Part shown: piece after piece, positions 2,391 to 24,687 of the stretch | Layout: every line of letters starts with the position of its first letter | How positions within the stretch are numbered: the stretch's first letter is position 1 | Assembly (NCBI GenBank): GCA_003153315.1 | Contig: PLYA01000027.1 | Span: 55,469-87,468 of the forward strand | Reading direction: 5' to 3' | DNA from: Bacteroidota bacterium | GTDB lineage: Bacteria; Bacteroidota; Bacteroidia; B-17B0; Aurantibacillaceae | DNA: 32,000 bases | The notes under the pieces: generated by a model | What the model saw: only the letters and a program-made list of their open reading frames with translations | What the model was told of the DNA's origin: nothing | Database searches by the model: none | Made by a program: the position numbers and the translations under genes

Positions 2391-2562
2391 ATAGAGGCGC
2401 TTTTAAACTTTATATATAAACTTTCATCTAATTGATAATTTGTTAAATGTTTAAGATAATTTAATAAAGTGTTTTAAACAGAAATTGAGATATTTGACAA
2501 AACAAAAACAGTTATATAAATTAATCTCTTTTACTATTTTTTACAGAGGTTAAAGATACTTT

Positions 2563-3882
2563 ATGTTGAACAGTATATTGCTATTTAAGAGGAAGAGTAC
2601 TACTGTTCTTGTTTTTCTGACTTGGATGTTTCTTTCGTCCGCTTCTTTTGCTCAAACAGATGATATGCCAAAAGATAGCATTCCTAAAACTATCGGTATA
2701 AATGCGGTAGAGAAGATAATTGAAAGAGATTTAATTGATGTTACCCAGAAAGTTATCCGTTTTTTTACCCCGCATAGTTTAAGGCACCCTATAGTTGCCG
2801 ACAGTTTAAAAAAGGATTCCGACATGGTGTACTTTGCCTTTCTTCCTGCGGTGGGTTATGCATTGCAAACAGGCGTAACAGGTATAGTTGCCATAAATAT
2901 TTCTTTTTTTACCAGCAAGAAATACAGAAAAGATACCAGGCTTTCTTCCTTTACCGTAAATCCGGCATTTTCATTACAAAATCAGGTTATGATACCTATT
3001 CAGTCTAATATTTGGCTTAACAAAAACAGGATAAACCTATTGGGCGACTGGCGTTATTATTTATATCCAACTGATACATACGGCTTAGGCGGGCAAACTT
3101 CTCTGTCAAATAGCAATTTGGTAAGGTATTCGTTTGTAAGAGTATATGAACAGGCTTCTAAAAGATTATTACCTAACTTTTACGTTGGGCTTGGTTATGG
3201 GCTTGACTGGCACTTTGGTATGAGCGTTCAAGAAACAGATGGTCTTGGTACAGATTTTCAGACCTATAACCATAATAAGAAAAGAACTGTATCATCCGGT
3301 CCGGTTTTAAATTTAACTTATGATAGCAGAGATAATATAAATAATCCGCATAAGGGAAATTATGCTAATGTTATTTTTCATAGTAACCTTAAAACATTTG
3401 GAAGCAATAGAGACTGGCAATCGCTTCAAATTGATTTGAGAAAGTTTATTAAACTTCATAGAAACGATAGACATGTATTGGCTTTATGGAGTTATAACTG
3501 GTTTACTTTTGGAGGAAAAGCGCCTTATTTTGACTTACCAAGCACAGGCTGGGATACTTATTCTAACACAGGTAGAGGATATATACAAGGCAGGCTTAGA
3601 GGAGATAACTTTATTTATTTAGAATCTGAATACAGGGTTACTATTACAAAAAATGGGTTGTTTGGGGGTGTTGCTTTTGCTAATGCACAAAGCGTTTCAG
3701 ATTATCCACCGGCTAACCCTAAAAATTATTTCTCTAATAGATATACAACTATTTTACCCGCTGCCGGATTAGGCATACGATTAAAGATTAATAAAGTATC
3801 TAAAGTAAACTTTGCCCTTGATTATGCTTGGGGTATGGGTGGATCAAGAGGTTTCTTCTTTAATTTATCCGAAGTATTTTAA
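2563..3882 (+). CDS. outer-membrane beta-barrel protein, Omp85/surface-antigen (D15)-like, no POTRA domains evident
   Basis: The signal peptide ends in SSASFAQT. The C-terminal region RGYIQGRLRGDNFIYLESEYRV...GGVAFANAQ...AAGLGIRLKI...FALDYAWG resembles the bacterial surface antigen barrel, and the terminal residue is F. Confidence 0.68.
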   Translation: MLNSILLFKRKSTTVLVFLTWMFLSSASFAQTDDMPKDSIPKTIGINAVEKIIERDLIDVTQKVIRFFTPHSLRHPIVADSLKKDSDMVYFAFLPAVGYALQTGVTGIVAINISFFTSKKYRKDTRLSSFTVNPAFSLQNQVMIPIQSNIWLNKNRINLLGDWRYYLYPTDTYGLGGQTSLSNSNLVRYSFVRVYEQASKRLLPNFYVGLGYGLDWHFGMSVQETDGLGTDFQTYNHNKKRTVSSGPVLNLTYDSRDNINNPHKGNYANVIFHSNLKTFGSNRDWQSLQIDLRKFIKLHRNDRHVLALWSYNWFTFGGKAPYFDLPSTGWDTYSNTGRGYIQGRLRGDNFIYLESEYRVTITKNGLFGGVAFANAQSVSDYPPANPKNYFSNRYTTILPAAGLGIRLKINKVSKVNFALDYAWGMGGSRGFFFNLSEVF

Positions 3883-3929: not shown

Positions 3930-4170
3930 TCATTTTTCCCGCAAACGCAAAGTTATTATCCGCGATAATGCGGAACTTTTGCGCGAATACGCGGGAATTT
4001 GCCGCGAGCGCAAAGCTATTATCCGCGATGAGGCGGAACTTTTGCGCGATGATGCGGGAACTTTCCGCGAGCGCGAAGTTATTACCAGCGATAATACGGA
4101 ACTTTTGCGCGAATACGCGGAAGTTTGCCGCGAGCGCAAAGCTATCACCCGCGATGGGACGGAATGAGGG
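3930..4170. repeat. GC-rich tandem repeat: 63-bp unit x about 3.6 (units start at 3946, 4009, 4072, 4135), each built from three degenerate 21-bp modules
   Basis: Direct reading gives cgcaaagttattatccgcgataatgcggaacttttgcgcgaatacgcgggaatttgccgcgag, then two near-identical 63-bp copies and a partial fourth. It lies between the convergent OMP (+) and rng (-) genes. One 60-nt line (3961-4020) has 32 G+C, against AT-rich flanks. Confidence 0.9.
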
Positions 4171-4198
4171 CGTGGTAAATAAAAGGTTGGTAGGCTTA

Positions 4199-5755
4199 TT
4201 AAATAATTATCTCGTCGTCAGCTTCATTATAAAACTTAAACTGCATAAAATTAAAGGATGCCATGCTGCGGATAGTTATTTTACAACCTGTTGTTTTTTT
4301 CCATTTAGAAAGCAAGCTGTTCCAAAAGAAACCTTTGGTTATAAAAGCTTCTATATAAGGATGTACACAAACAGTAATTTTCTTTAAGTTTTGTTCTTTT
4401 ATAACAAAACGAAGGGTGCTTTCTATTTGCTCTACAAAAAGCACACTTGGTTGCACTTTGCCTGTACCATTACAGCTCGGACAAACTTCCTGCACATCCA
4501 CATTCATTTCAGGGCGTACACGCTGACGGGTAAGTTGTATTAAGCCAAATTTACTTGGGGGAAGTATGTTATGCTTTGCCCTATCGGTTTTCATAAACTC
4601 TTTAAACTTTTCAAAGAGTTCTCTGCGATACTCGGGGTTACGCATATCAATAAAATCCACCACAATAATACCACCCATATCGCGCAATCTTAACTGACGG
4701 GCAATTTCTGCAGCAGCTTCCAGGTTTACTTCTAAGGCATTCTCATCTTGTGAATTAGTAGATTTTGCACGGTTTCCGCTGTTTACATCAATAACGTGCA
4801 GAGCTTCGGTATGCTCAATAAAAAGGTAAGCACCACTTTTTAAGTGAACCGTTTTACCAAAGAGTGATTTTATTTGTTTCTCTATTCCAAAATGATCAAA
4901 AATAGGAAGCTTACTATCATAAGGCTTAATAATATCAAGCTGATCGGGCGCAATATTTTTAAGATAAGTGGCCAGTTCGGATTGTATGTGCTTATCGTTG
5001 GTATGTATGGCAGAAAACTTTGCATTCAGTATATCACGTAATAAGGCATTGGTTCTATCAACTTCACCTAATACACGGGCGGGTGGCTGAGCTGTTTTTA
5101 ATGTTTTAAAACACTCATCCCATTTGGCAATCAGATCGTTTAAATCTCCTTCTATTTCTGCCACAGATTTCCCTTCAGCAACCGTACGAATAATTACCCC
5201 AAAGTTTTTTGGTTTAATATTCTGAACCAATTCTTTTAGTCTTATTTTTTCTTCATTACTGCGTATTTTAGAAGATATAGAAACCTTATCAGAAAAAGGA
5301 ATCAATACCAGAAAACGCCCTGCTAAAGATATTTCGCAGGTAACACGGGGTCCTTTGGCAGAGATAGGTTCTTTAGCAACCTGTATTAATATATCCTGCC
5401 CGCTTTTAACAACGCTATTTATCTTTCCGTCTTTAGGAATATCTTTTTCCAGTTTAAAATACATCAGGTTAGAAGCATTTTGCTTACCTGATTTTACTTG
5501 TTCTAAATACTTACTAAGTGTAGCAGCTTGCGGACCTAAATCAAGATAGTGCAGAAAAGCATCCTTTTCATACCCTACATCTATAAAAGCGGCGTTTAGC
5601 CCAGTCATTACTTTACCTACCCTTCCCAGGTAAATATCTCCAACAGCCCATTTAAGATTACCTCTCTCACGGTGCAGCTCAATCAAACGCTTATCGTCTA
5701 GCAAAGCTATAACTATCTCGTCTGAGGTTTTGTTTATAATCAGTTCGTAGTTCAC
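4199..5755 (-). CDS. rng: ribonuclease G / Rne-Rng family endoribonuclease
   Basis: 518 aa. S1 domain: GDIYLGRVGKVMTGLNAAFIDVGYEKDAFLH. Catalytic-core motifs: HVIDVNSG, GGIIVVDFIDM. The start codon is GTG (plus-strand cac at 5753-5755). Confidence 0.9.
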   Translation of the reverse strand: MNYELIINKTSDEIVIALLDDKRLIELHRERGNLKWAVGDIYLGRVGKVMTGLNAAFIDVGYEKDAFLHYLDLGPQAATLSKYLEQVKSGKQNASNLMYFKLEKDIPKDGKINSVVKSGQDILIQVAKEPISAKGPRVTCEISLAGRFLVLIPFSDKVSISSKIRSNEEKIRLKELVQNIKPKNFGVIIRTVAEGKSVAEIEGDLNDLIAKWDECFKTLKTAQPPARVLGEVDRTNALLRDILNAKFSAIHTNDKHIQSELATYLKNIAPDQLDIIKPYDSKLPIFDHFGIEKQIKSLFGKTVHLKSGAYLFIEHTEALHVIDVNSGNRAKSTNSQDENALEVNLEAAAEIARQLRLRDMGGIIVVDFIDMRNPEYRRELFEKFKEFMKTDRAKHNILPPSKFGLIQLTRQRVRPEMNVDVQEVCPSCNGTGKVQPSVLFVEQIESTLRFVIKEQNLKKITVCVHPYIEAFITKGFFWNSLLSKWKKTTGCKITIRSMASFNFMQFKFYNEADDEIII

Positions 5756-5788
5756 GATAATATAATTTTATTGGTATATACGCAGAAA

Positions 5789-5812
5789 GCTGAAAAGATG
5801 ATACTTTTCAGC
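5789..5812 (-). terminator. perfect 9-bp hairpin (gctgaaaag-atgata-cttttcagc) between the small basic ORF and rng
   Basis: I read the stem directly. On the minus strand it is followed by ctttctg, a weak U-tract. It could be a terminator, an attenuator or a processing site. Confidence 0.35.
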
Positions 5813-5838
5813 AAACGGCGAATTATAAAAGAAATGGA

Positions 5839-5928
5839 TTATTTCTTTTTATGACGATTCTTTCTAAGACGCTTTTTGCGCTTATGAGTGGCCATTTTAT
5901 GACGTTTTCTTTTCTTTCCGCTTGGCAT
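5839..5928 (-). CDS. 29-aa highly basic protein, AURKAIP1/COX24-domain (ribosomal bS22-like)
   Basis: It is below the ORF track's 60-aa cutoff. Hand translation of the minus strand gives MPSGKKRKRHKMATHKRKKRLRKNRHKKK followed by a stop. The KKRKRHKM..HKRKKRLR pattern resembles actinobacterial bS22 and mitochondrial mS38-type peptides. It lies in the same orientation between the TPR gene and rng. Confidence 0.6.
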   Translation of the reverse strand: MPSGKKRKRHKMATHKRKKRLRKNRHKKK

Positions 5929-5968
5929 AGAATTAATTTTTGTGCTTTGGTTTAATTACCTCGGCTGG

Positions 5969-6796
5969 TTAAACATTACTTTTAAGTTGACTTATATATT
6001 TCTTTATTTGTTCTTTAATTTCTTTATCAGGAGTTAACTCTACGTATCTCTCCAGTGTTTCAATTGTTTTATTCTTCTCCCCCTCCTTTTCATATACATC
6101 GGCCAAAAACAAATAGGCCTCTAAGTATTCGGGATTTATTTTTACTACTTTTTTATAACGGGCTTCTGCTTTATCAAACTGACCTGATTTTACTGCGAAT
6201 GCTCCTAAGACCATTTGCACCTGTATATTTGTGCTATCGGCTCTTTCCACCTCTTTCAACATCCCTATACCTTTCATTGGGTCTGAGCTGCTTTCAACAT
6301 AACAAGAAGCTAACTGTATTTTTGCTTCTGTATAATCAGGCTTTTTGGCTAAGGCTTGGTTGTAACAATTCATGGCGCTTTGATAAAGGCTTTGTAACTG
6401 GTTCTTGTCTTTTATAAAACCCACTGAATAAAAATAACGGCTACCTGCATCGTACCATATTTTGGCTGTATTAACTTTCTCAGCTTTCTTCTCATAATAA
6501 TAGCAAGAGGCAAGAGGCATCTTTTTAGTATTAAAAAAGTCTATCAGGTTGTTTAAACCTGTAGTATCAGTAGCTTTTTTATCAAGAGTTTCATATTCTT
6601 TCTTATCCTTATCGGGCAAAGAAGAAACAATGGCATCTACAATTACTTTTATATCTACTACTTGCTGAGCTGCCTCAGTTTTTGTAGAAGTATCTTCGGC
6701 TTTTTTAACCGGTTTTTTGTTAGCAATAAATAAAAGAACGAATAATATAATTGAGCAAACAACTACGGTTAATTGTAGCGTACGCGTGTTTTTCAT
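5969..6796 (-). CDS. membrane-anchored tetratricopeptide (TPR) repeat protein
   Basis: N-terminal TM helix: LQLTVVVCSIILFVLLFIA. TPR-like repeats include YQSAMNCYNQALAKKPDY and AEARYKKVVKINPEYLEAYLFLADVYEKEG. It overlaps the HU stop by 4 nt, which suggests an operon. Confidence 0.75.
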   Translation of the reverse strand: MKNTRTLQLTVVVCSIILFVLLFIANKKPVKKAEDTSTKTEAAQQVVDIKVIVDAIVSSLPDKDKKEYETLDKKATDTTGLNNLIDFFNTKKMPLASCYYYEKKAEKVNTAKIWYDAGSRYFYSVGFIKDKNQLQSLYQSAMNCYNQALAKKPDYTEAKIQLASCYVESSSDPMKGIGMLKEVERADSTNIQVQMVLGAFAVKSGQFDKAEARYKKVVKINPEYLEAYLFLADVYEKEGEKNKTIETLERYVELTPDKEIKEQIKKYISQLKSNV

Positions 6797-7083
6797 TCTA
6801 CTTTAACATTTTTCTTAATCTTATCGGCAAAGGTTTTGGCAGGTTTAAAGGCAGGTATATAGTGTGCAGGTATATGAACCGCAGTGTTTTTAGTAATGTT
6901 GCGTCCTATTTTAGCTGCACGCTTTTTACATAAAAAAGTACCGAAACCACGCAGGTAAACGTTCTTGCCCTGCGTCATATTATTTTTTACCACTTTCATA
7001 AAAGATTCAACTGTATTAAGCACAATGGTACGCTCTACCCCCGTCTTTTCAGCTATTTCATTTACTATGTCGGCTTTGGTCAT
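6793..7083 (-). CDS. HU/IHF family DNA-binding protein
   Basis: 96 aa, MTKADIVNEIAEKTG...LRGFGTF...RNITKNTAVHIPAHYIPAFKPAK, the classic HU fold signature. Confidence 0.9.
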   Translation of the reverse strand: MTKADIVNEIAEKTGVERTIVLNTVESFMKVVKNNMTQGKNVYLRGFGTFLCKKRAAKIGRNITKNTAVHIPAHYIPAFKPAKTFADKIKKNVKVE

Positions 7084-20867: not shown

Positions 20868-20868
20868 T

Positions 20869-20937
20869 GTCATTGCCAGGAGGCACGACGAAGCAATCTG
20901 TTTATTATTGAGATTGCTGCGCTTCGCTCGCAATGAC
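20869..20937. repeat. REP-like imperfect palindrome between convergent genes; probable bidirectional terminator
   Basis: The left arm is gtcattgccaggaggcacgacgaagcaatct, the loop is gtttattattg, and the right arm is agattgctgcgcttcgctcgcaatgac. The outer 8 bp (gtcattgc/gcaatgac) and inner 8 bp (agcaatct/agattgct) pair around an internal mismatch bubble. It is GC-rich relative to its flanks. Confidence 0.7.
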
Positions 20938-20944
20938 GGGCAGG

Positions 20945-21271
20945 TTATTTACCTCCCAGCAATACCAGTTCATTCATTTGTATTTCGGTAGTGTAGCGCT
21001 TAATACCTTCTTTATCAGTATTGTTGTTGTTTACCAACTTACCTTCTATGGCAACCTCGCTGCCCTTATCGGTGTATTTGGCCAGTCTTTCTGCTAAAGC
21101 ACCCCAGGCAATTACGTTGTGCCAGGTAGTATCTTTTACCCACTCGCCTTTTTTGTTTTTGTAGGTTTCATTGGTAGCGATGGATACGCGGGTCATTTGT
21201 TTGTTGCCTTCAAAGGTTTTTACTTCGGGTTTGTTACCCAGGTGTCCGATTAGTGTTACTTTGTTTCTCAT
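20945..21271 (-). CDS. ssb: single-stranded DNA-binding protein, OB-fold only (no C-terminal acidic tip)
   Basis: 108 aa. NKVTLIGHLGNKPEV...TTWHNVIAWGALAE...GSEVAIEGKL...RYTTEIQMNELVLLG is the SSB OB-fold pattern. The protein ends ...LLGGK, without a Gly-rich linker or a DDDxPF tail. Confidence 0.85.
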   Translation of the reverse strand: MRNKVTLIGHLGNKPEVKTFEGNKQMTRVSIATNETYKNKKGEWVKDTTWHNVIAWGALAERLAKYTDKGSEVAIEGKLVNNNNTDKEGIKRYTTEIQMNELVLLGGK

Positions 21272-21477
21272 GGTGTTTTTGTTTTAACTGTTTTGATTAA
21301 TTTGACGATGCAAAGTAACGGCGACCTCAAAACAATACTCGGTATTTAAGCACTTCTATACGGATAAAAACGGTTACAACTATTTGTTGTCGGGTAAAAA
21401 CAATAGCTCCTGACACTTATTATAATTCGCGTCCAAAGCTACTTTGTAATAAGTTAAATATAATAAATAATATTGTA

Positions 21478-22191
21478 ATGAATAAAACAAGGGGATTGGT
21501 ATTAAAAATTTGTATAGTAATACTTGCTGCTATTGCCGCAATACTTCCTTTAATTTGGAAGAAAGAACATATTGCAAAAACAATAATAATAGTTTTTGCT
21601 TTAATTACTATTTGCACTCTTTCATGGATAGACGCCGTAAGAGAAACAAATGAATCGGATAAAAAGGATAATAATCATGTTTTAGAATTAAGAAAGGATA
21701 GTTTAAGATATATAAAAGACAGTATTAAAAGAGAAGACCAATATTATCAACAAATAACAGCCTTACAGTATATAGCAGCAAAAAAAAGAGATAGTTTGTT
21801 GAGTATAATAAATAGCAATTATTTATATGGAAACATTATTGAAAAAAGTAAATTGTTCTTAGTGTCAGGAATGGGAAATAGAATAGTGGTAAATGGAGAT
21901 ACTTATTTAAAAGAAAGGCGTTTAACTCAAAAAGAAAAAGAGGAAATATATTCTAAATTAACGATGTTAAAGGTTTTTTATCCTGATGTGAAATTTTATC
22001 AGATAAACACAATAATTAATAACAGATTAGTTCAAGATATTAAAGTATTTATGAATCAAAATGGATACGAATCTGCAACATCAGACGGCGGAATGATGGC
22101 AGGTAATTTTCAGTTCAAAGGAATTAAAGTAGGCTACGATAATTTTATGAAATGTATTTCTATATCTATAGGGGCTATAGAAGAAGAGTAA
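21478..22191 (+). CDS. hypothetical membrane protein (two N-terminal TM helices, charged coiled-coil-like middle, unknown C-terminal domain)
   Basis: A 237-codon ORF in extremely AT-rich DNA, where stop codons are frequent, argues for real coding. TM helices: LVLKICIVILAAIAAILPLIW and TIIIVFALITICTLSWI. I recognise no family. Confidence 0.6.
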   Translation: MNKTRGLVLKICIVILAAIAAILPLIWKKEHIAKTIIIVFALITICTLSWIDAVRETNESDKKDNNHVLELRKDSLRYIKDSIKREDQYYQQITALQYIAAKKRDSLLSIINSNYLYGNIIEKSKLFLVSGMGNRIVVNGDTYLKERRLTQKEKEEIYSKLTMLKVFYPDVKFYQINTIINNRLVQDIKVFMNQNGYESATSDGGMMAGNFQFKGIKVGYDNFMKCISISIGAIEEE

Positions 22192-22252
22192 TTATTTTTT
22201 AAGAATAGAAACCCTTAGTTAAAAAACAAAAAGCCCTTCACTTTTTACTTTT

Positions 22253-22283
22253 AGCTTAACCTAAGCTGCCTTTACGTTAAGCT
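22253..22283. terminator. palindromic hairpin (agcttaac-N15-gttaagct) at the outer edge of the 21-bp array
   Basis: I read the 8-bp stem directly. An alternative inner hairpin is agctta-acc-taagct. A T-rich stretch follows on the minus strand (ctttttgtttttt), so it may terminate the 22585..23301 transcript after the array. Confidence 0.3.
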
Positions 22284-22293
22284 GGGTTGTTTA

Positions 22294-22587
22294 TTCGGAA
22301 TGAGTTATTGGTTATTCGCTAAGACTCATTAATCATTCGGAATAACACATTACCTATTCGTTATGACTGATTAATCATTCAGAATGAGATATTAGTCATT
22401 CAGAATAAGTTATTGATTATTCGTAATGACACATTAGTTAAACGGAATGACTTATTGATTATTCGGAATAATACATCAATCATTCGTTAAGACTCATTAG
22501 TTATTCGCTACAACACATTAATCATTCCGAATAAAACATTGGTTATTCGGAATGATTAGTTACTTATTCGTTAAGAACAACTGTTTA
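22294..22587. repeat. array of 14 contiguous, exactly phased 21-bp direct repeats, consensus TTCGGAATGACnCATTAATTA
   Basis: The units start at 22294 + 21n with no indel. U1-U7: ttcggaatgagttattggtta, ttcgctaagactcattaatca, ttcggaataacacattaccta, ttcgttatgactgattaatca, ttcagaatgagatattagtca, ttcagaataagttattgatta, ttcgtaatgacacattagtta. U8-U14: aacggaatgacttattgatta, ttcggaataatacatcaatca, ttcgttaagactcattagtta, ttcgctacaacacattaatca, ttccgaataaaacattggtta, ttcggaatgattagttactta, ttcgttaagaacaactgttta. The last unit contains the stop codon of the minus-strand ORF. Confidence 0.95.
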
Positions 22588-23301
22588 TAGGGGGCTTGGG
22601 TTATTGCCTGTGCTGGTAGATGCGGGTATAACCTCAGAGATAGAGCTGCTCCAATGATAATCGGCGGCGTTTGCATCTACCGTTGGATATATACCTTTGC
22701 CCACAGGGGGAGTAAAATCATATTGAAAATATACCCTTACATCATGCGGCAGGTTAATAATAGTAACCGTACTTTTATGAGTAGATTTTACCTGATGCCA
22801 GGTAACCTGGTCGGTGCTCCACCTAAAATGGTGTACCGAGCCTGCACCCGAAGCAGGAGTTTCTATGGTGGCAGAACCTCCGGAAACGCTTAGTACCCTA
22901 AAAATATGTTTATGATTGGTTCCGTGGCCAACGGGTGCCAAGCCAAAACGGGCAAAAACAGTGGTAATTTGGGCAATATTGCCCGGAAACTTTTGGTTGC
23001 AAACACTGTCAATATAATTTACCAATATATCGGTATTATGCAACAGGGTGCTTCCTTTGCTAAGTTCATCAGAAGTTAGCGTGGCCGACCTTGCCGTTTG
23101 CCTTGCCACCACATCGGTATTCAAATCGCCAATATTGGTGGTATATATAGGAATAGTGAGCGGCGCGGGTATGCCGCTGGCAGGCACATCGGGGTCTATA
23201 GCCAACTGATTTTTTAAAGCAGTGGCAAATGGCACTAATTCTTCAGATGTTTTGTTGTGGTAATCCTTTGCGGCTTTTACCCAGGTTATTGAGTTTTTCA
23301 T
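22585..23301 (-). CDS. hypothetical protein; helical N-terminal half, possible Fn3/Ig-like beta-sandwich C-terminal half; no signal peptide
   Basis: A 238-aa ORF with an ATG start, GC-richer than its neighbours (30 G+C in the 60 nt at 22621-22680). The C-terminal HHFRWSTDQVTWHQVKSTHKSTVTIINLPHDVRVYFQY looks like a fibronectin-III-type strand pattern, but this is pattern recognition only. I recognise no family. Confidence 0.62.
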   Translation of the reverse strand: MKNSITWVKAAKDYHNKTSEELVPFATALKNQLAIDPDVPASGIPAPLTIPIYTTNIGDLNTDVVARQTARSATLTSDELSKGSTLLHNTDILVNYIDSVCNQKFPGNIAQITTVFARFGLAPVGHGTNHKHIFRVLSVSGGSATIETPASGAGSVHHFRWSTDQVTWHQVKSTHKSTVTIINLPHDVRVYFQYDFTPPVGKGIYPTVDANAADYHWSSSISEVIPASTSTGNNPSPL

Positions 23302-23367
23302 TTTGTTTGCCCTTTTGGGGTCTTTGTTTTTTTGAATTGATAATAGAACCTTAGAGTCTGAGTTACG

Positions 23368-23436
23368 GTTGTCTGGAACAGAGAGGCGGTTGTCTATTTC
23401 TTAGGAGCTGTTGTCTATCGCAGAGATAAGTTGTCT
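23368..23436. promoter_or_regulatory. four direct GTTGTCT motifs spaced 21, 21 and 20 bp apart, upstream of the 22585..23301 ORF
   Basis: gttgtct occurs at 23368-23374, 23389-23395, 23410-23416 and 23430-23436, in the contexts cGGTTGTCTGGA, cGGTTGTCTATT, cTGTTGTCTATC and aAGTTGTCTGGG. The nearest copy is 67 nt upstream of the ATG at 23301. I found no canonical TAnnTTTG box for this gene. Confidence 0.55.
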
Positions 23437-23448
23437 GGGACTTTAGCT

Positions 23449-23474
23449 AACACCTGTAGCGCTTTGCAGGTGTT
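23449..23474 (+). other. 8-bp hairpin aacacctg-tagcgctttg-caggtgtt followed by ttat, between divergent genes
   Basis: I read the stem directly, and the loop contains the palindrome agcgct. On the plus strand it resembles an intrinsic terminator, but no annotated plus-strand gene ends here. Confidence 0.4.
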
Positions 23475-23577
23475 TTATATGCGTAAAACGAGGGGTGTTT
23501 TAAATTATTGTATGACGATGAAAATATTTTTTTCGTTATTAACTTTTATCCTTATTTTAGAGCTAAAATAAAACTGT

Positions 23578-24687
23578 ATGAGAAAGATTTACTTTATTAA
23601 AATGCTTGCTTTGCTACTGCCTCTGCAAATTTTTTCTCAAACAAGCGTATCGCAGTTAACCGTAACACCAGATTCGGTAGCTACCACATTGGCACAGGCT
23701 ATAGAAGGTAGTGGTGTAACCATAAGTAGTGCATCTTTAAACTGCGGTGCAGGGGGTGCAGGAACATTTTCATATCCAAGTACAGGTACTAATTTAGGTT
23801 TAACCAATGGGATACTTCTAACAAATGGTGGCGCAAATATTGTTGCAAATGCAGGATCTTATTTTTGTTCCGTTCAAACAGGAAATAATTTTACTGATAC
23901 TGATTTAACAGCTATTTATACTTCTGATACAAATGATGTTTGCATACTTCAATTTGATATTATACCTATGGGCGATACCATGAGTATTAAGTATGTTTTT
24001 GGCTCTGAAGAATATAATGGATATGTATGTTCACCTTTTAATGATGCATTCGGATTCTTTTTAACCGGACTTAACCCTGCAGGTGGTACATATAATGGGC
24101 AAAACATAGCTATTCTTCCGGGGATAACACCTGCAACACCTGTATCTATCAATACTGTAAATAATGGGGGTACCATGTATCCATGTTCAGCTACTAATCC
24201 CTCTTTTTACCATGATAATATTGCAAGCCCTAATAATGATATTGCTTATGATGGATATACCATACCCATTACCTCTGTTATTCCGGTGGTAGCATCTGCT
24301 ACTTATCATATTAAAATAGCTATTGCTGATGCAAGTGATGAAATTTTTGATTCCGGAGTTTTTATACAGGATGGCATTAGCAGTAATCAACCAAATACAA
24401 CCAATATTAATCTGTTAAATAAACAAGATAAAACCTTGCTTGTTTATCCTAATCCAACCAACGGCATACTTACTATTAAATATACTCTAAATAATACTGA
24501 TTGCAATGAGGCTGTTTTGCAGCTATTGGAAATGAATAGTGGTACTACAATACTTAAGAAAAATATAGCTTGCAATGCTACTCAAACACAAATTGATATG
24601 AGCGAATTGCCAAGCGGTGTTTATTCCTTAAGCATACTAAGTAATACAAATGCCTCAAAGAATATAAAGGTAATTAAGGTGAAGTAA
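23578..24687 (+). CDS. T9SS-secreted protein: choice-of-anchor L-like domain plus type A C-terminal sorting domain
   Basis: Signal peptide ...LLLPLQIFSQT. The segment GLTNGILLTNG...TDTDL...FDIIPMGDTMSIKYVFGSEEY...NDAFGFFL...ILPG...VSINTVNNG matches the choice-of-anchor L pattern. The C-terminal LLVYPNPTNGILTIKY...LPSGVYSLSIL...IKVIKVK is a Por/T9SS CTD. Confidence 0.85.
   Translation: MRKIYFIKMLALLLPLQIFSQTSVSQLTVTPDSVATTLAQAIEGSGVTISSASLNCGAGGAGTFSYPSTGTNLGLTNGILLTNGGANIVANAGSYFCSVQTGNNFTDTDLTAIYTSDTNDVCILQFDIIPMGDTMSIKYVFGSEEYNGYVCSPFNDAFGFFLTGLNPAGGTYNGQNIAILPGITPATPVSINTVNNGGTMYPCSATNPSFYHDNIASPNNDIAYDGYTIPITSVIPVVASATYHIKIAIADASDEIFDSGVFIQDGISSNQPNTTNINLLNKQDKTLLVYPNPTNGILTIKYTLNNTDCNEAVLQLLEMNSGTTILKKNIACNATQTQIDMSELPSGVYSLSILSNTNASKNIKVIKVK

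Follow-up and report, generated by a model that had tools for sequence, protein, structure and literature searches.

Associations between a gene and a set of repeats have several times led to new biology, with CRISPR, ToxIN, plasmid centromeres and REPIN-RAYT as precedents. Plasmid centromeres are tandem arrays such as sopC of F, bound by SopB, in which 12 repeats of 43 bp follow sopB, parC of R1 with ParR, and parC of pSK41. In the iteron replicon of P1, repA is followed by nine incA iterons, and iterons of 17-22 bp are placed at a spacing of about 21-22 bp. The omega protein of the inc18 plasmids has sites of 7-10 contiguous 7-bp heptads in direct-direct-inverted order with a 21-bp super-period, and the metboxes of MetJ are AGACGTCT. 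The sites of LytTR regulators (AgrA, ComE, YpdB, BtsR) are direct repeats of 8-10 bp with a spacing of about 21 bp. In the type III system ToxIN, tandem 36-nt RNA repeats lie upstream of the gene of a basic endoribonuclease toxin, with a terminator in between. Here we describe a stretch of 32,000 nt from a Bacteroidota bacterium of the Aurantibacillaceae (assembly GCA_003153315.1, contig PLYA01000027.1, positions 55,469 to 87,468), hereafter the window, in which the stop codon of an open reading frame (ORF) of 238 amino acids, ORF238, is followed by a tandem array of 21-bp units, array B. The association of such a gene with such an array was not found described in the literature, and the partnership is without a described counterpart.

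The 2.3-kb block containing array B had in an initial annotation been seen as a mosaic mini-island, possibly a compact undescribed module of two proteins and two repeat arrays. Two unrelated parts make up the block. To the right (22222-23512) lies a native and conserved unit consisting of a leader, ORF238 and the 21-bp-period array. The left part (20868-22221), with a second ORF of 237 amino acids (ORF237) and a single-stranded DNA-binding protein (SSB) that has no C-terminal tail, is strain-specific accessory DNA in a variable spot beside array B. A compact module thus stands in the form of one protein with repeats, recurring across genomes, and not with two proteins as members. As reported, ORF237 (plus strand) and ORF238 (minus strand) are both present and converge on array B, which lies between their 3′ ends. 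In comparisons across loci the window is termed W, and L002 to L038 are the fetched loci of the ORF238 family. The right part has the following features.

22585-23301, minus strand: ORF238, 238 aa, the core gene of the module, with a helical bundle and a sandwich resembling fibronectin type III (Fn3).
22291-22584, no strand assigned: array B, 14 units of exactly 21 bp, from the ORF238 stop codon.
22222-22283, no strand assigned: two hairpins between array B and the ORF237 stop codon, a predicted fold of either strand.
23302-23512, minus strand: conserved leader upstream of ORF238, aligning with the leaders of L032, L034 and L038.
23368-23436, minus strand: array C, four AGACAAC boxes inside the leader.
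23449-23478, plus strand: conserved hairpin AACACCTG-N10-CAGGTGTT followed by a T-run, antisense to ORF238.

Both ORFs had been taken for orphans. This holds for ORF237, which among 5.8 billion proteins matched itself alone, but not for ORF238, which belongs to an uncharacterised family of proteins of about 200-250 aa. A protein cluster search gave 29 close clusters of relatives with 48-100% identity, and a profile search of a library of 1.8 billion proteins gave 93 relatives, many of them 200-230 aa long and matching most of the profile. The 28 distinct family loci with enough flanking DNA are here called judged loci. An array with a period of 21 or 42 bp was found 3′ of the stop codon in 27 of these, and upstream of the gene in the remaining one, L036. 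The arrays have from about 6 to 47 units and begin 0 to about 420 nt past the stop codon, some with super-periods of 42, 63, 84 or 105 bp, and in approximately 60% of the loci the array starts at most 30 nt from the stop codon with no terminator between. In a blind test confined to the 600 nt 3′ of the stop codon, a 21/42-bp periodicity was detected in 25 of 26 family loci versus 16 of 122 other ORFs (Fisher p = 1.7e-16), and most of these 16 control ORFs were convergent neighbours of the same arrays. L036 was the sole exception in the test, its family gene being immediately preceded by an array of about 18 units; L037 and L038, both with arrays, were fetched later. Four of the judged loci (L030, L031, L027 and L036) hold distant homologues from genomes of about 70% G+C, and all four have arrays. 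That of L030 consists of 21.6 units of GTACCGTCCGATGGGATGGTT, that of L031 has a 42-bp period, and that of L027 is degenerate, with 42, 21 and 63 as its three best lags. The pairing of an ORF238-family gene with a 21-bp-period array is robust across distant lineages.

Within the window, array B comprises 14 units in exact register (Tandem Repeats Finder score 131-217), and the core of the unit is the near-palindrome TCATTCnGAATGA with a conserved AAT block. Allowing at most two mismatches, TCATTCnGAATGA occurs nine times in the window, eight of these within array B, against an average of 1.6 in shuffled windows, none of which reached nine copies in 100 shuffles. Array B is not a chance product. 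Between the array and ORF237, neither the hairpin of 22253-22283 (AGCTTAAC...GTTAAGCT) nor the A/T-rich stem of 22222-22252 was recognised as a canonical terminator by a simple terminator scan, and these hairpins probably form a shared 3′ end for the convergent ORF237 and ORF238. The number of units varies between strains (9 in L032 versus 11 in L033). In two independent assemblies, those of L034/L035, the 21-bp array is interrupted at 6910-7009 by a run of N, a scaffold gap. Because assemblers break within arrays, copy numbers are probably higher than counted, and a further practical warning is that spurious ORFs are sometimes called across them.

A unit of 21 nt equals seven codons, and young homogeneous arrays contain open frames, up to 343 codons in L009. 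That the arrays encode a protein of 7-aa heptads is nevertheless a reading to which we give next to no credence, and it was rejected on stop-codon counts. All six frames of array B are closed with at least five stop codons per frame, and the stops lie within recurring unit variants rather than reflecting random decay. Nine of 27 arrays, that of the window included, have stop codons in all six frames. From one locus to another, homologous units also differ by indels that alter the frame, and gene callers rarely call the arrays as genes.

The ORF238 protein contains neither a hydrophobic or transmembrane segment nor a signal peptide, and the family protein is cytoplasmic. The AlphaFold2 model of the whole protein has a confidence (pLDDT) of 82, and the N-terminal domain modelled alone reaches 92; the prediction has a confident bundle of four to five helices at the N-terminus and a beta sandwich at the C-terminus. 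In Foldseek searches the C-terminal half matched Fn3 domains, which are seven-stranded beta sandwiches, exclusively (E ~1e-4 to 3e-4, TM-score 0.6-0.67 relative to the target); here modelling and fold search bear out the Fn3-like C-terminal half that had been proposed from the letters of the DNA. The N-terminal domain alone gave nothing significant in Foldseek (best E 0.54) and is without a counterpart among the folds of the PDB. Profile searches with ORF238 against Pfam, NCBIfam, PHROGs, PADLOC and PDB sequences returned no matches, and when 23 close and distant family members were searched against Pfam and PHROGs the sole match was to Pfam fn3, in one distant member (5e-6). In the clade of the window the isoelectric point (pI) is 5.9-6.8, with 7% lysine and arginine, while distant members have a higher pI. 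The retrieved loci include no cultured representative of the family, a tblastn search of ORF238 against 72,556 plasmids and 50,697 phages gave no match, and three scans of viral contigs gave no family member.

The swing in composition that had been reported across the block was exact on recount, with 12 G+C in 21661-21720 (inside ORF237) and 30 in 22621-22680 (inside ORF238). The G+C content is 27.5% in ORF237, 45.2% in ORF238, 29.3% in array B and 35.9% in the whole window, and the G+C of third codon positions (GC3) is 0.42 in ORF238 versus 0.27-0.36 in most neighbouring genes. All 11 Bacteroidia genes of the family that were measured lie 3-11 points above the surrounding G+C, with GC3 of 0.38-0.51. 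The raised G+C is therefore a trait of the ORF238 family and not a sign of recent transfer; it is perhaps linked to the level of expression.

Upstream of ORF238, a leader of about 200 nt is common to W, L032, L034 and L038. The boxes of array C are spaced by 21, 21 and 20 bp and are the sole four copies of AGACAAC in the 32 kb. A block of 31 nt in the leader, with two AGAC boxes 21 bp apart, is invariant at 30 of 31 positions among W, L032 and L034, whereas the 4-fold degenerate sites of the genes adjoining the leader are merely 43-62% identical. The leader of the window has two boxes, or 21-bp units, more than its orthologues, and in the leader of L038 the boxes are contiguous heptads. The leader boxes lie on a 21-bp (3 x 7) lattice, as the downstream arrays do, and the word AATAGACAA of the leader is also found in the downstream array units of L032/L033 and L008-L010. 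From its sequence, array C looks like a candidate operator. The conserved hairpin at 23449-23478 may either close a divergent small transcript or belong to the 5′ region of ORF238.

The units themselves change rapidly. The rate at which their consensuses diverge is close to that of 4-fold degenerate sites, and where 4-fold identity falls below about 50% the similarity of units is at the level of shuffled or random sequence while the period is still 21 or 42. Between distant loci the similarity of whole units was not above that of shuffled controls, in contrast to the short core alone, which was. In the clade of L007, L018 and L019, the 9-bp core GAACAAYTG was retained at 26 of 27 positions, and about half of the other 12 positions have changed. 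ACAAT is present in roughly half of the independent unit consensuses, where chance was estimated to give about 0.05 per unit, and it is often part of a palindrome (AGACAATTGTCT, ACAATTGT, AACCAATTGG). Several unit cores are loop-less palindromes which are unable to fold back on themselves (ACAATTGT, CAATATTG, AACCAATTGGTT). Apart from the leader box in L033, copies or complements of the array 9-mers were essentially absent elsewhere in each locus. In L009 the units agree at 94% and are contiguous without spacers. Paralogues within one genome carry different units: one metagenome-assembled genome (MAG) has four copies of the module gene with three different types of unit, and another has two copies.

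Based on this architecture, the arrays may be understood as phased DNA binding sites for a sequence-specific protein, in which case the leader boxes would be an operator and the long array a platform in cis. We favour this reading, although its probability falls somewhat short of even. The arrays would act as DNA, in the form of rows of short and often palindromic recognition sites placed one per two helical turns, and all the sites would therefore be located on the same face of the helix. A sequence-specific protein would bind as dimers and spread co-operatively along the array. The few boxes of the leader would serve as operator for the family gene, and the long downstream array would be a high-capacity platform, either for titration or storage of the binder or for the formation of a nucleoprotein filament or boundary. 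The binder could be the encoded family protein itself or a dedicated small DNA-binding protein, such as LytTR in one lineage, and protein and array would co-evolve as private pairs, which would account for the different units in paralogues of one genome. The DNA-level reading is preferred because the period is strictly helical and the sequence free, because the cores are short and often loop-less palindromes, and because the same box is present in leader and array. It is also preferred because in L008 and L010 the terminator scan places a canonical terminator between the gene and its array, because the array of L036 is upstream of its gene, and because the two strands behave alike with respect to palindrome departures and folding, as detailed below.

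LytTR is a concrete candidate binder in one lineage, as judged by gene order. In L007/L017, L010 and L020 the family gene is directly preceded, on the same strand, by a stand-alone LytTR gene, and two pairs of LytTR and family gene in one MAG have diverged together (33% identity between the LytTR proteins, 47% between the family proteins). LytTR regulators such as YpdB bind direct repeats of about 9-10 bp at a spacing of about 21 bp.

The main rival to reading the arrays at the level of DNA is a role as an RNA element, in which the array is the 3′ untranslated region (UTR) of the ORF238 mRNA and its hairpins stabilise or terminate a highly expressed transcript or bind the encoded protein. We regard this as unlikely. 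In its favour, most arrays begin 0-30 nt past the stop codon without an intervening terminator, hairpins follow the array both in the window and in L032, the GC3 of ORF238 is compatible with high expression, and folding of the array region is much stronger than that of shuffled sequence (z about -6). The two strands fold alike, however, and a reading of the listed units of array B gave 3-4 departures from the palindrome of the T.G type versus 3 of the C.A type, so that no G.U asymmetry is seen. The loop-less palindromic cores, the terminators that part the gene from its array in L008 and L010 and the upstream array of L036 are also at odds with an element of the 3′ UTR, and hairpins offer no reason for a strict period of 21 nt. 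A search of Rfam, at the gathering score and at E = 1, together with a scan for tRNA and tmRNA, found nothing.

A smaller role for RNA would be a divergent small RNA (sRNA) with a sponge, where an antisense leader transcript of about 110 nt, containing GUUGUCU repeats and a terminator hairpin, pairs with AGACAA units in the 3′ array of the mRNA. The antisense hairpin and its T-run are found in W, L032 and L034, with a compensatory change from C-G to G-C in the stem of L034; the invariant 31-nt block would be the seed, and there are 9-10 nt of complementarity to the array units of L032/L033. This pairing is nonetheless highly improbable. The fold of the leader was not above that of shuffled sequence (z = -1.4), no promoter was identified for the transcript, the array units of the window have drifted away from AGACAAT, and the other clades have no complementary partner outside the array.

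Two further explanations dispense with a specific binder. The arrays could be a physical or topological element of DNA, with bendable or curved phased repeats, a sink for gyrase or nucleoid proteins, or a boundary by a strongly transcribed gene, and roles of this kind have been proposed for the BIME-2 arrays of enterobacteria. A period that is conserved while the sequence is nearly free is as expected for such an element, as are arrays at the 3′ ends of genes, often between convergent genes, and the orphan 21-bp arrays located away from any family gene. It is still a distinctly unlikely explanation, in that a core of 9-10 bp is much better conserved than the remainder of the unit, autocorrelation showed no sub-period of 10-11 bp, and neither the specific link to one protein family across distant lineages nor the invariant leader boxes are explained.

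The arrays might also be functionless by-products, slippage-prone heptamer satellites (7 x 3) that arise easily and merely persist by the gene. Among the related loci (L002-L026 and the window, 190 kb), the tandem repeats are nearly all of two kinds, 21 arrays with a period of 7 and 23 with a period of 21/42, examples of period 7 being CTGATTA x17 in L021 and CGACTGT x12 in L011, which suggests a heptamer-based repeat process in these Bacteroidia loci. TAACTGA repeats, a comparable heptamer phenomenon, are reported in PMC4679880. The difference in copy number between L032 and L033 and the fast drift of the unit would also fit an origin by slippage. We consider a pure by-product improbable, as the pairing is present in 28 of 28 judged loci, among them loci in genomes of 36% and of about 70% G+C with unit sequences that have nothing in common, and because the pairing spans such a distance neutral persistence is not credible.

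Several points weigh against phased binding sites for a protein as well. The family protein has no DNA-binding fold recognisable by Foldseek and is near-neutral in the clade of the window. LytTR genes were found in one lineage, and phmmer detected none within 6 kb of ORF238 or in the other loci. Arrays of 20-47 sites far exceed any operator known to us, and all claims of binding are drawn from the architecture of the sequence. The close and terminator-free onset of about 60% of the arrays fits a 3′-UTR role too. Arrays of 21 bp or 7 bp furthermore exist apart from any family gene, as at 3941-4171 of the window, and the genomes therefore have a general process that generates or tolerates repeats.

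A wider proposal may also be made, which we offer as rather doubtful: the bundle/Fn3 proteins and their private arrays would constitute an undescribed chromosomal class of protein-repeat pairs, ranging from Bacteroidota to high-G+C bacteria. The protein, alone or with a partner such as LytTR, would coat its own array in orthogonal co-evolving pairs, and the coated array would mark a chromosomal boundary where accessory, defence and toxin-antitoxin genes gather. In any case an unannotated protein family gains a testable clue, namely a cis-linked array with a fixed period of two helical turns and a changing sequence. Should the protein or a partner bind the array, then the paralogues of one genome, with their different units, would already constitute orthogonal pairs of protein and DNA.

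For the described systems other than LytTR sites, membership fails each time on the defining protein, as no NTPase, ribbon-helix-helix (RHH), ParB, Rep, HUH or ToxN fold is found. The likeness to plasmid centromeres consists in a tandem array of short palindrome-bearing repeats by one gene, with a varying copy number and a sequence private to each replicon. Unlike centromeres, the module has no conserved ParA, ParM or TubZ NTPase gene nearby, its protein shows no RHH, helix-turn-helix or ParB fold in Foldseek, and it is chromosomal, with up to four copies per genome and in none of the plasmids searched. A partition locus was rejected accordingly: the array is adjacent to the gene, but NTPase and binding-protein fold are both missing. 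One locus, L015, has a ParA-like gene past the array, which may be the chromosomal parA.

An operator, a gene and downstream direct repeats at one per two helical turns are also the order of iteron arrays, and a role in titration is plausible. No winged-helix Rep was found by fold or Pfam, however, and the module is chromosomal and multi-copy. DnaA boxes and AT-rich origin features were not seen either, though no search aimed at them was made. An iteron replicon was rejected, the module not being plasmid-borne in the tblastn search and having housekeeping flanks. The omega heptads and MetJ metboxes are resembled by the 7-bp boxes on a 7/21-bp lattice (contiguous in L038, at 21 bp in the window) and by AGAC/GTCT half-sites in several arrays, and one element may serve as both operator and array; in contrast to these systems no RHH gene is present and the arrays are much longer. 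The spacing of exactly 21 bp in arrays and leader boxes is that of LytTR sites, and a LytTR gene is directly upstream in four loci, but the known sites are paired and not in tens, and LytTR genes are absent from the window and most loci.

Palindromic tandem units at the 3′ ends of genes are shared with the repetitive extragenic palindromes (REP) and BIMEs, and a single gene with its own co-evolving repeats is shared with RAYT. The module differs from REPIN-RAYT in having no HUH/Y1 transposase by fold or Pfam and in its strictly phased 21-bp units, and from REP in that the core motif of the array is not dispersed but confined to the array within the 32 kb. In ToxIN, too, a protein gene is paired with a tandem array of fixed unit length; here the array is downstream in 27 of 28 loci, PADLOC and Pfam gave no hit and the fold is a different one. 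CRISPR was rejected on account of contiguous units without spacers and no cas-like neighbours.

The left part of the block and the element at its far edge contain the following features, all outside the module.

21478-22191, plus strand: ORF237, 237 aa, a strain-specific orphan.
20945-21271, minus strand: tail-less SSB, Pfam SSB E 5e-29.
20869-20941, no strand assigned: REP-like palindromic element at the far edge of the variable segment, by the GT9 stop codon.

ORF237 has hydrophobic segments at residues ~6-27 and 33-52 followed by a stretch with 35% charged residues, in line with the two transmembrane helices and charged segment ascribed to it earlier, and after this charged helical stretch a C-terminal domain of about 110 aa. 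The gene is very A+T-rich, with a GC3 of 0.20, far below the genome. No hit above threshold was obtained in Pfam, NCBIfam, PHROGs or PADLOC. The N-terminus (window 21478-21640) has sub-threshold similarity to 8xMP (PF24838, E 0.04) and DUF4231 (E 0.27), both families with two transmembrane segments; no use can be made of similarities as weak as these, but they point towards a protein of membrane-effector type, which would suit the accessory islet. The SSB is 108 aa long and Pfam SSB (PF00436) spans residues 3-103, leaving an OB fold without a C-terminal tail, as had been read from the sequence; canonical bacterial SSBs have an acidic C-terminal tail beside the OB-fold domain. Its best matches are plasmid and phage ssb genes with at most 55% identity. 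The REP-like element GAGATTGC...GCAATGAC, which contains GAGATTGCTGCGCTTCGCTCGCAATGAC, lies between the stop codons of GT9 and SSB. Elements with 80% identity to it over 75 nt precede the family genes of L008 and L009. The element of the window may be the far edge of the variable insert.

The context of the block is best seen in L032 and L033, where the family protein is about 75% identical and the gene has the position that it has in the window, with DUF4369-thioredoxin, Aminopep and DUF218 before it. The neighbours identified in the window are panC, GT9, a cargo protein of the type IX secretion system (T9SS; Por_Secre_tail) and DUF218/ydcF, and the Pfam labels agree with the flanks originally named; the T9SS cargo gene is absent from L032 and L033. 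These two loci are identical to each other up to a point inside the array and unrelated beyond it. Past the array, the window has ORF237 and SSB, L032 has several hypothetical genes in a row and a methylase of the Dam type, L033 a 347-aa ORF, L038 an HNH gene, a HigBA-like pair and MazEF, L012 a weak ParE-like ORF and L037 a weak Imm26-like ORF. With different genes past the array in each relative and the divergence of L032 from L033, ORF237 and SSB are therefore strain-specific cargo, and ORF238 with its repeats is native. The suspicion of foreign DNA in a mosaic block thus applies to one of its parts: ORF237 and SSB look like foreign DNA by the GC3 of ORF237 and by their variable spot, but ORF238 is syntenic by DUF218 and its G+C a family trait. 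A genomic island or mobile element was rejected for the block as a whole, the ORF237-SSB part alone being polymorphic and ORF238 with the array being syntenic in L032/L033. The called genes as far as 6 kb to either side include none with the Pfam label of an integrase or transposase, although no systematic search for them was made. The spot just past the array is a variable islet that may be used as a landmark in comparative genomics.

A single module of SSB, ORF237, the arrays and ORF238, with a mobile, partition, replication or defence function, is on these grounds hardly conceivable. In its favour are the adjacency, which is limited to the window, and the accessory genes of defence or toxin-antitoxin type at the same spot in relatives. 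Against it, homologues of ORF237 and SSB were found in none of the other fetched family loci, and the chromosomal position of ORF238 is constant across strains. The labelled called genes include no ParA, Rep or integrase gene, and the lack of any NTPase, Rep, PADLOC or Pfam hit likewise speaks against the partition, replication, defence or toxin roles that had been suggested. The two proteins had been considered as partners, with their co-occurrence in other genomes as the proposed check; ORF237 and ORF238 never co-occur elsewhere, and the two-ORF module therefore falls by the standard of the initial annotation itself.

No neighbouring gene is conserved across the analysed loci of the family. 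In about five independent contexts the family gene has upstream of it, in varying orientation, a T9SS cargo gene with a Por_Secre_tail or CHU_C C-terminal domain (window 23578-24687; L002 1864-4221; L008/L009 ~2530-3723; L013 1-240; L034 901-5457), which seems to exceed chance. L008 and L009 belong to one MAG and their family proteins are 98% identical. Near-perfect tandem repeats of 120, 126 and 331 bp are found upstream in both (L008 1964-3613, L009 1003-3613), partly in a repeat-rich T9SS-type gene, and the two loci look like a recent segmental duplication including the module. In L011 the gene past the array (5056-6708) encodes a 550-aa protein of repeats of about 201 bp. L038 and the window share the flanking housekeeping genes Obg, SDR and Glyco_transf_5 in rearranged order and orientation, as if an inversion had occurred with the module at one of its breakpoints.

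A second exact 21-bp array is present in the window at 3941-4171. It has no gene of the ORF238 family nearby and its unit is unrelated to that of array B. This array consists of 11 units, has a super-period of 63 bp and contains small palindromes rich in G+C, e.g. CCGCGATAATGCGG, and it is located between the convergent 3′ ends of a 439-aa ORF of outer-membrane type and a 518-aa minus-strand ORF that resembles RNase G/E.

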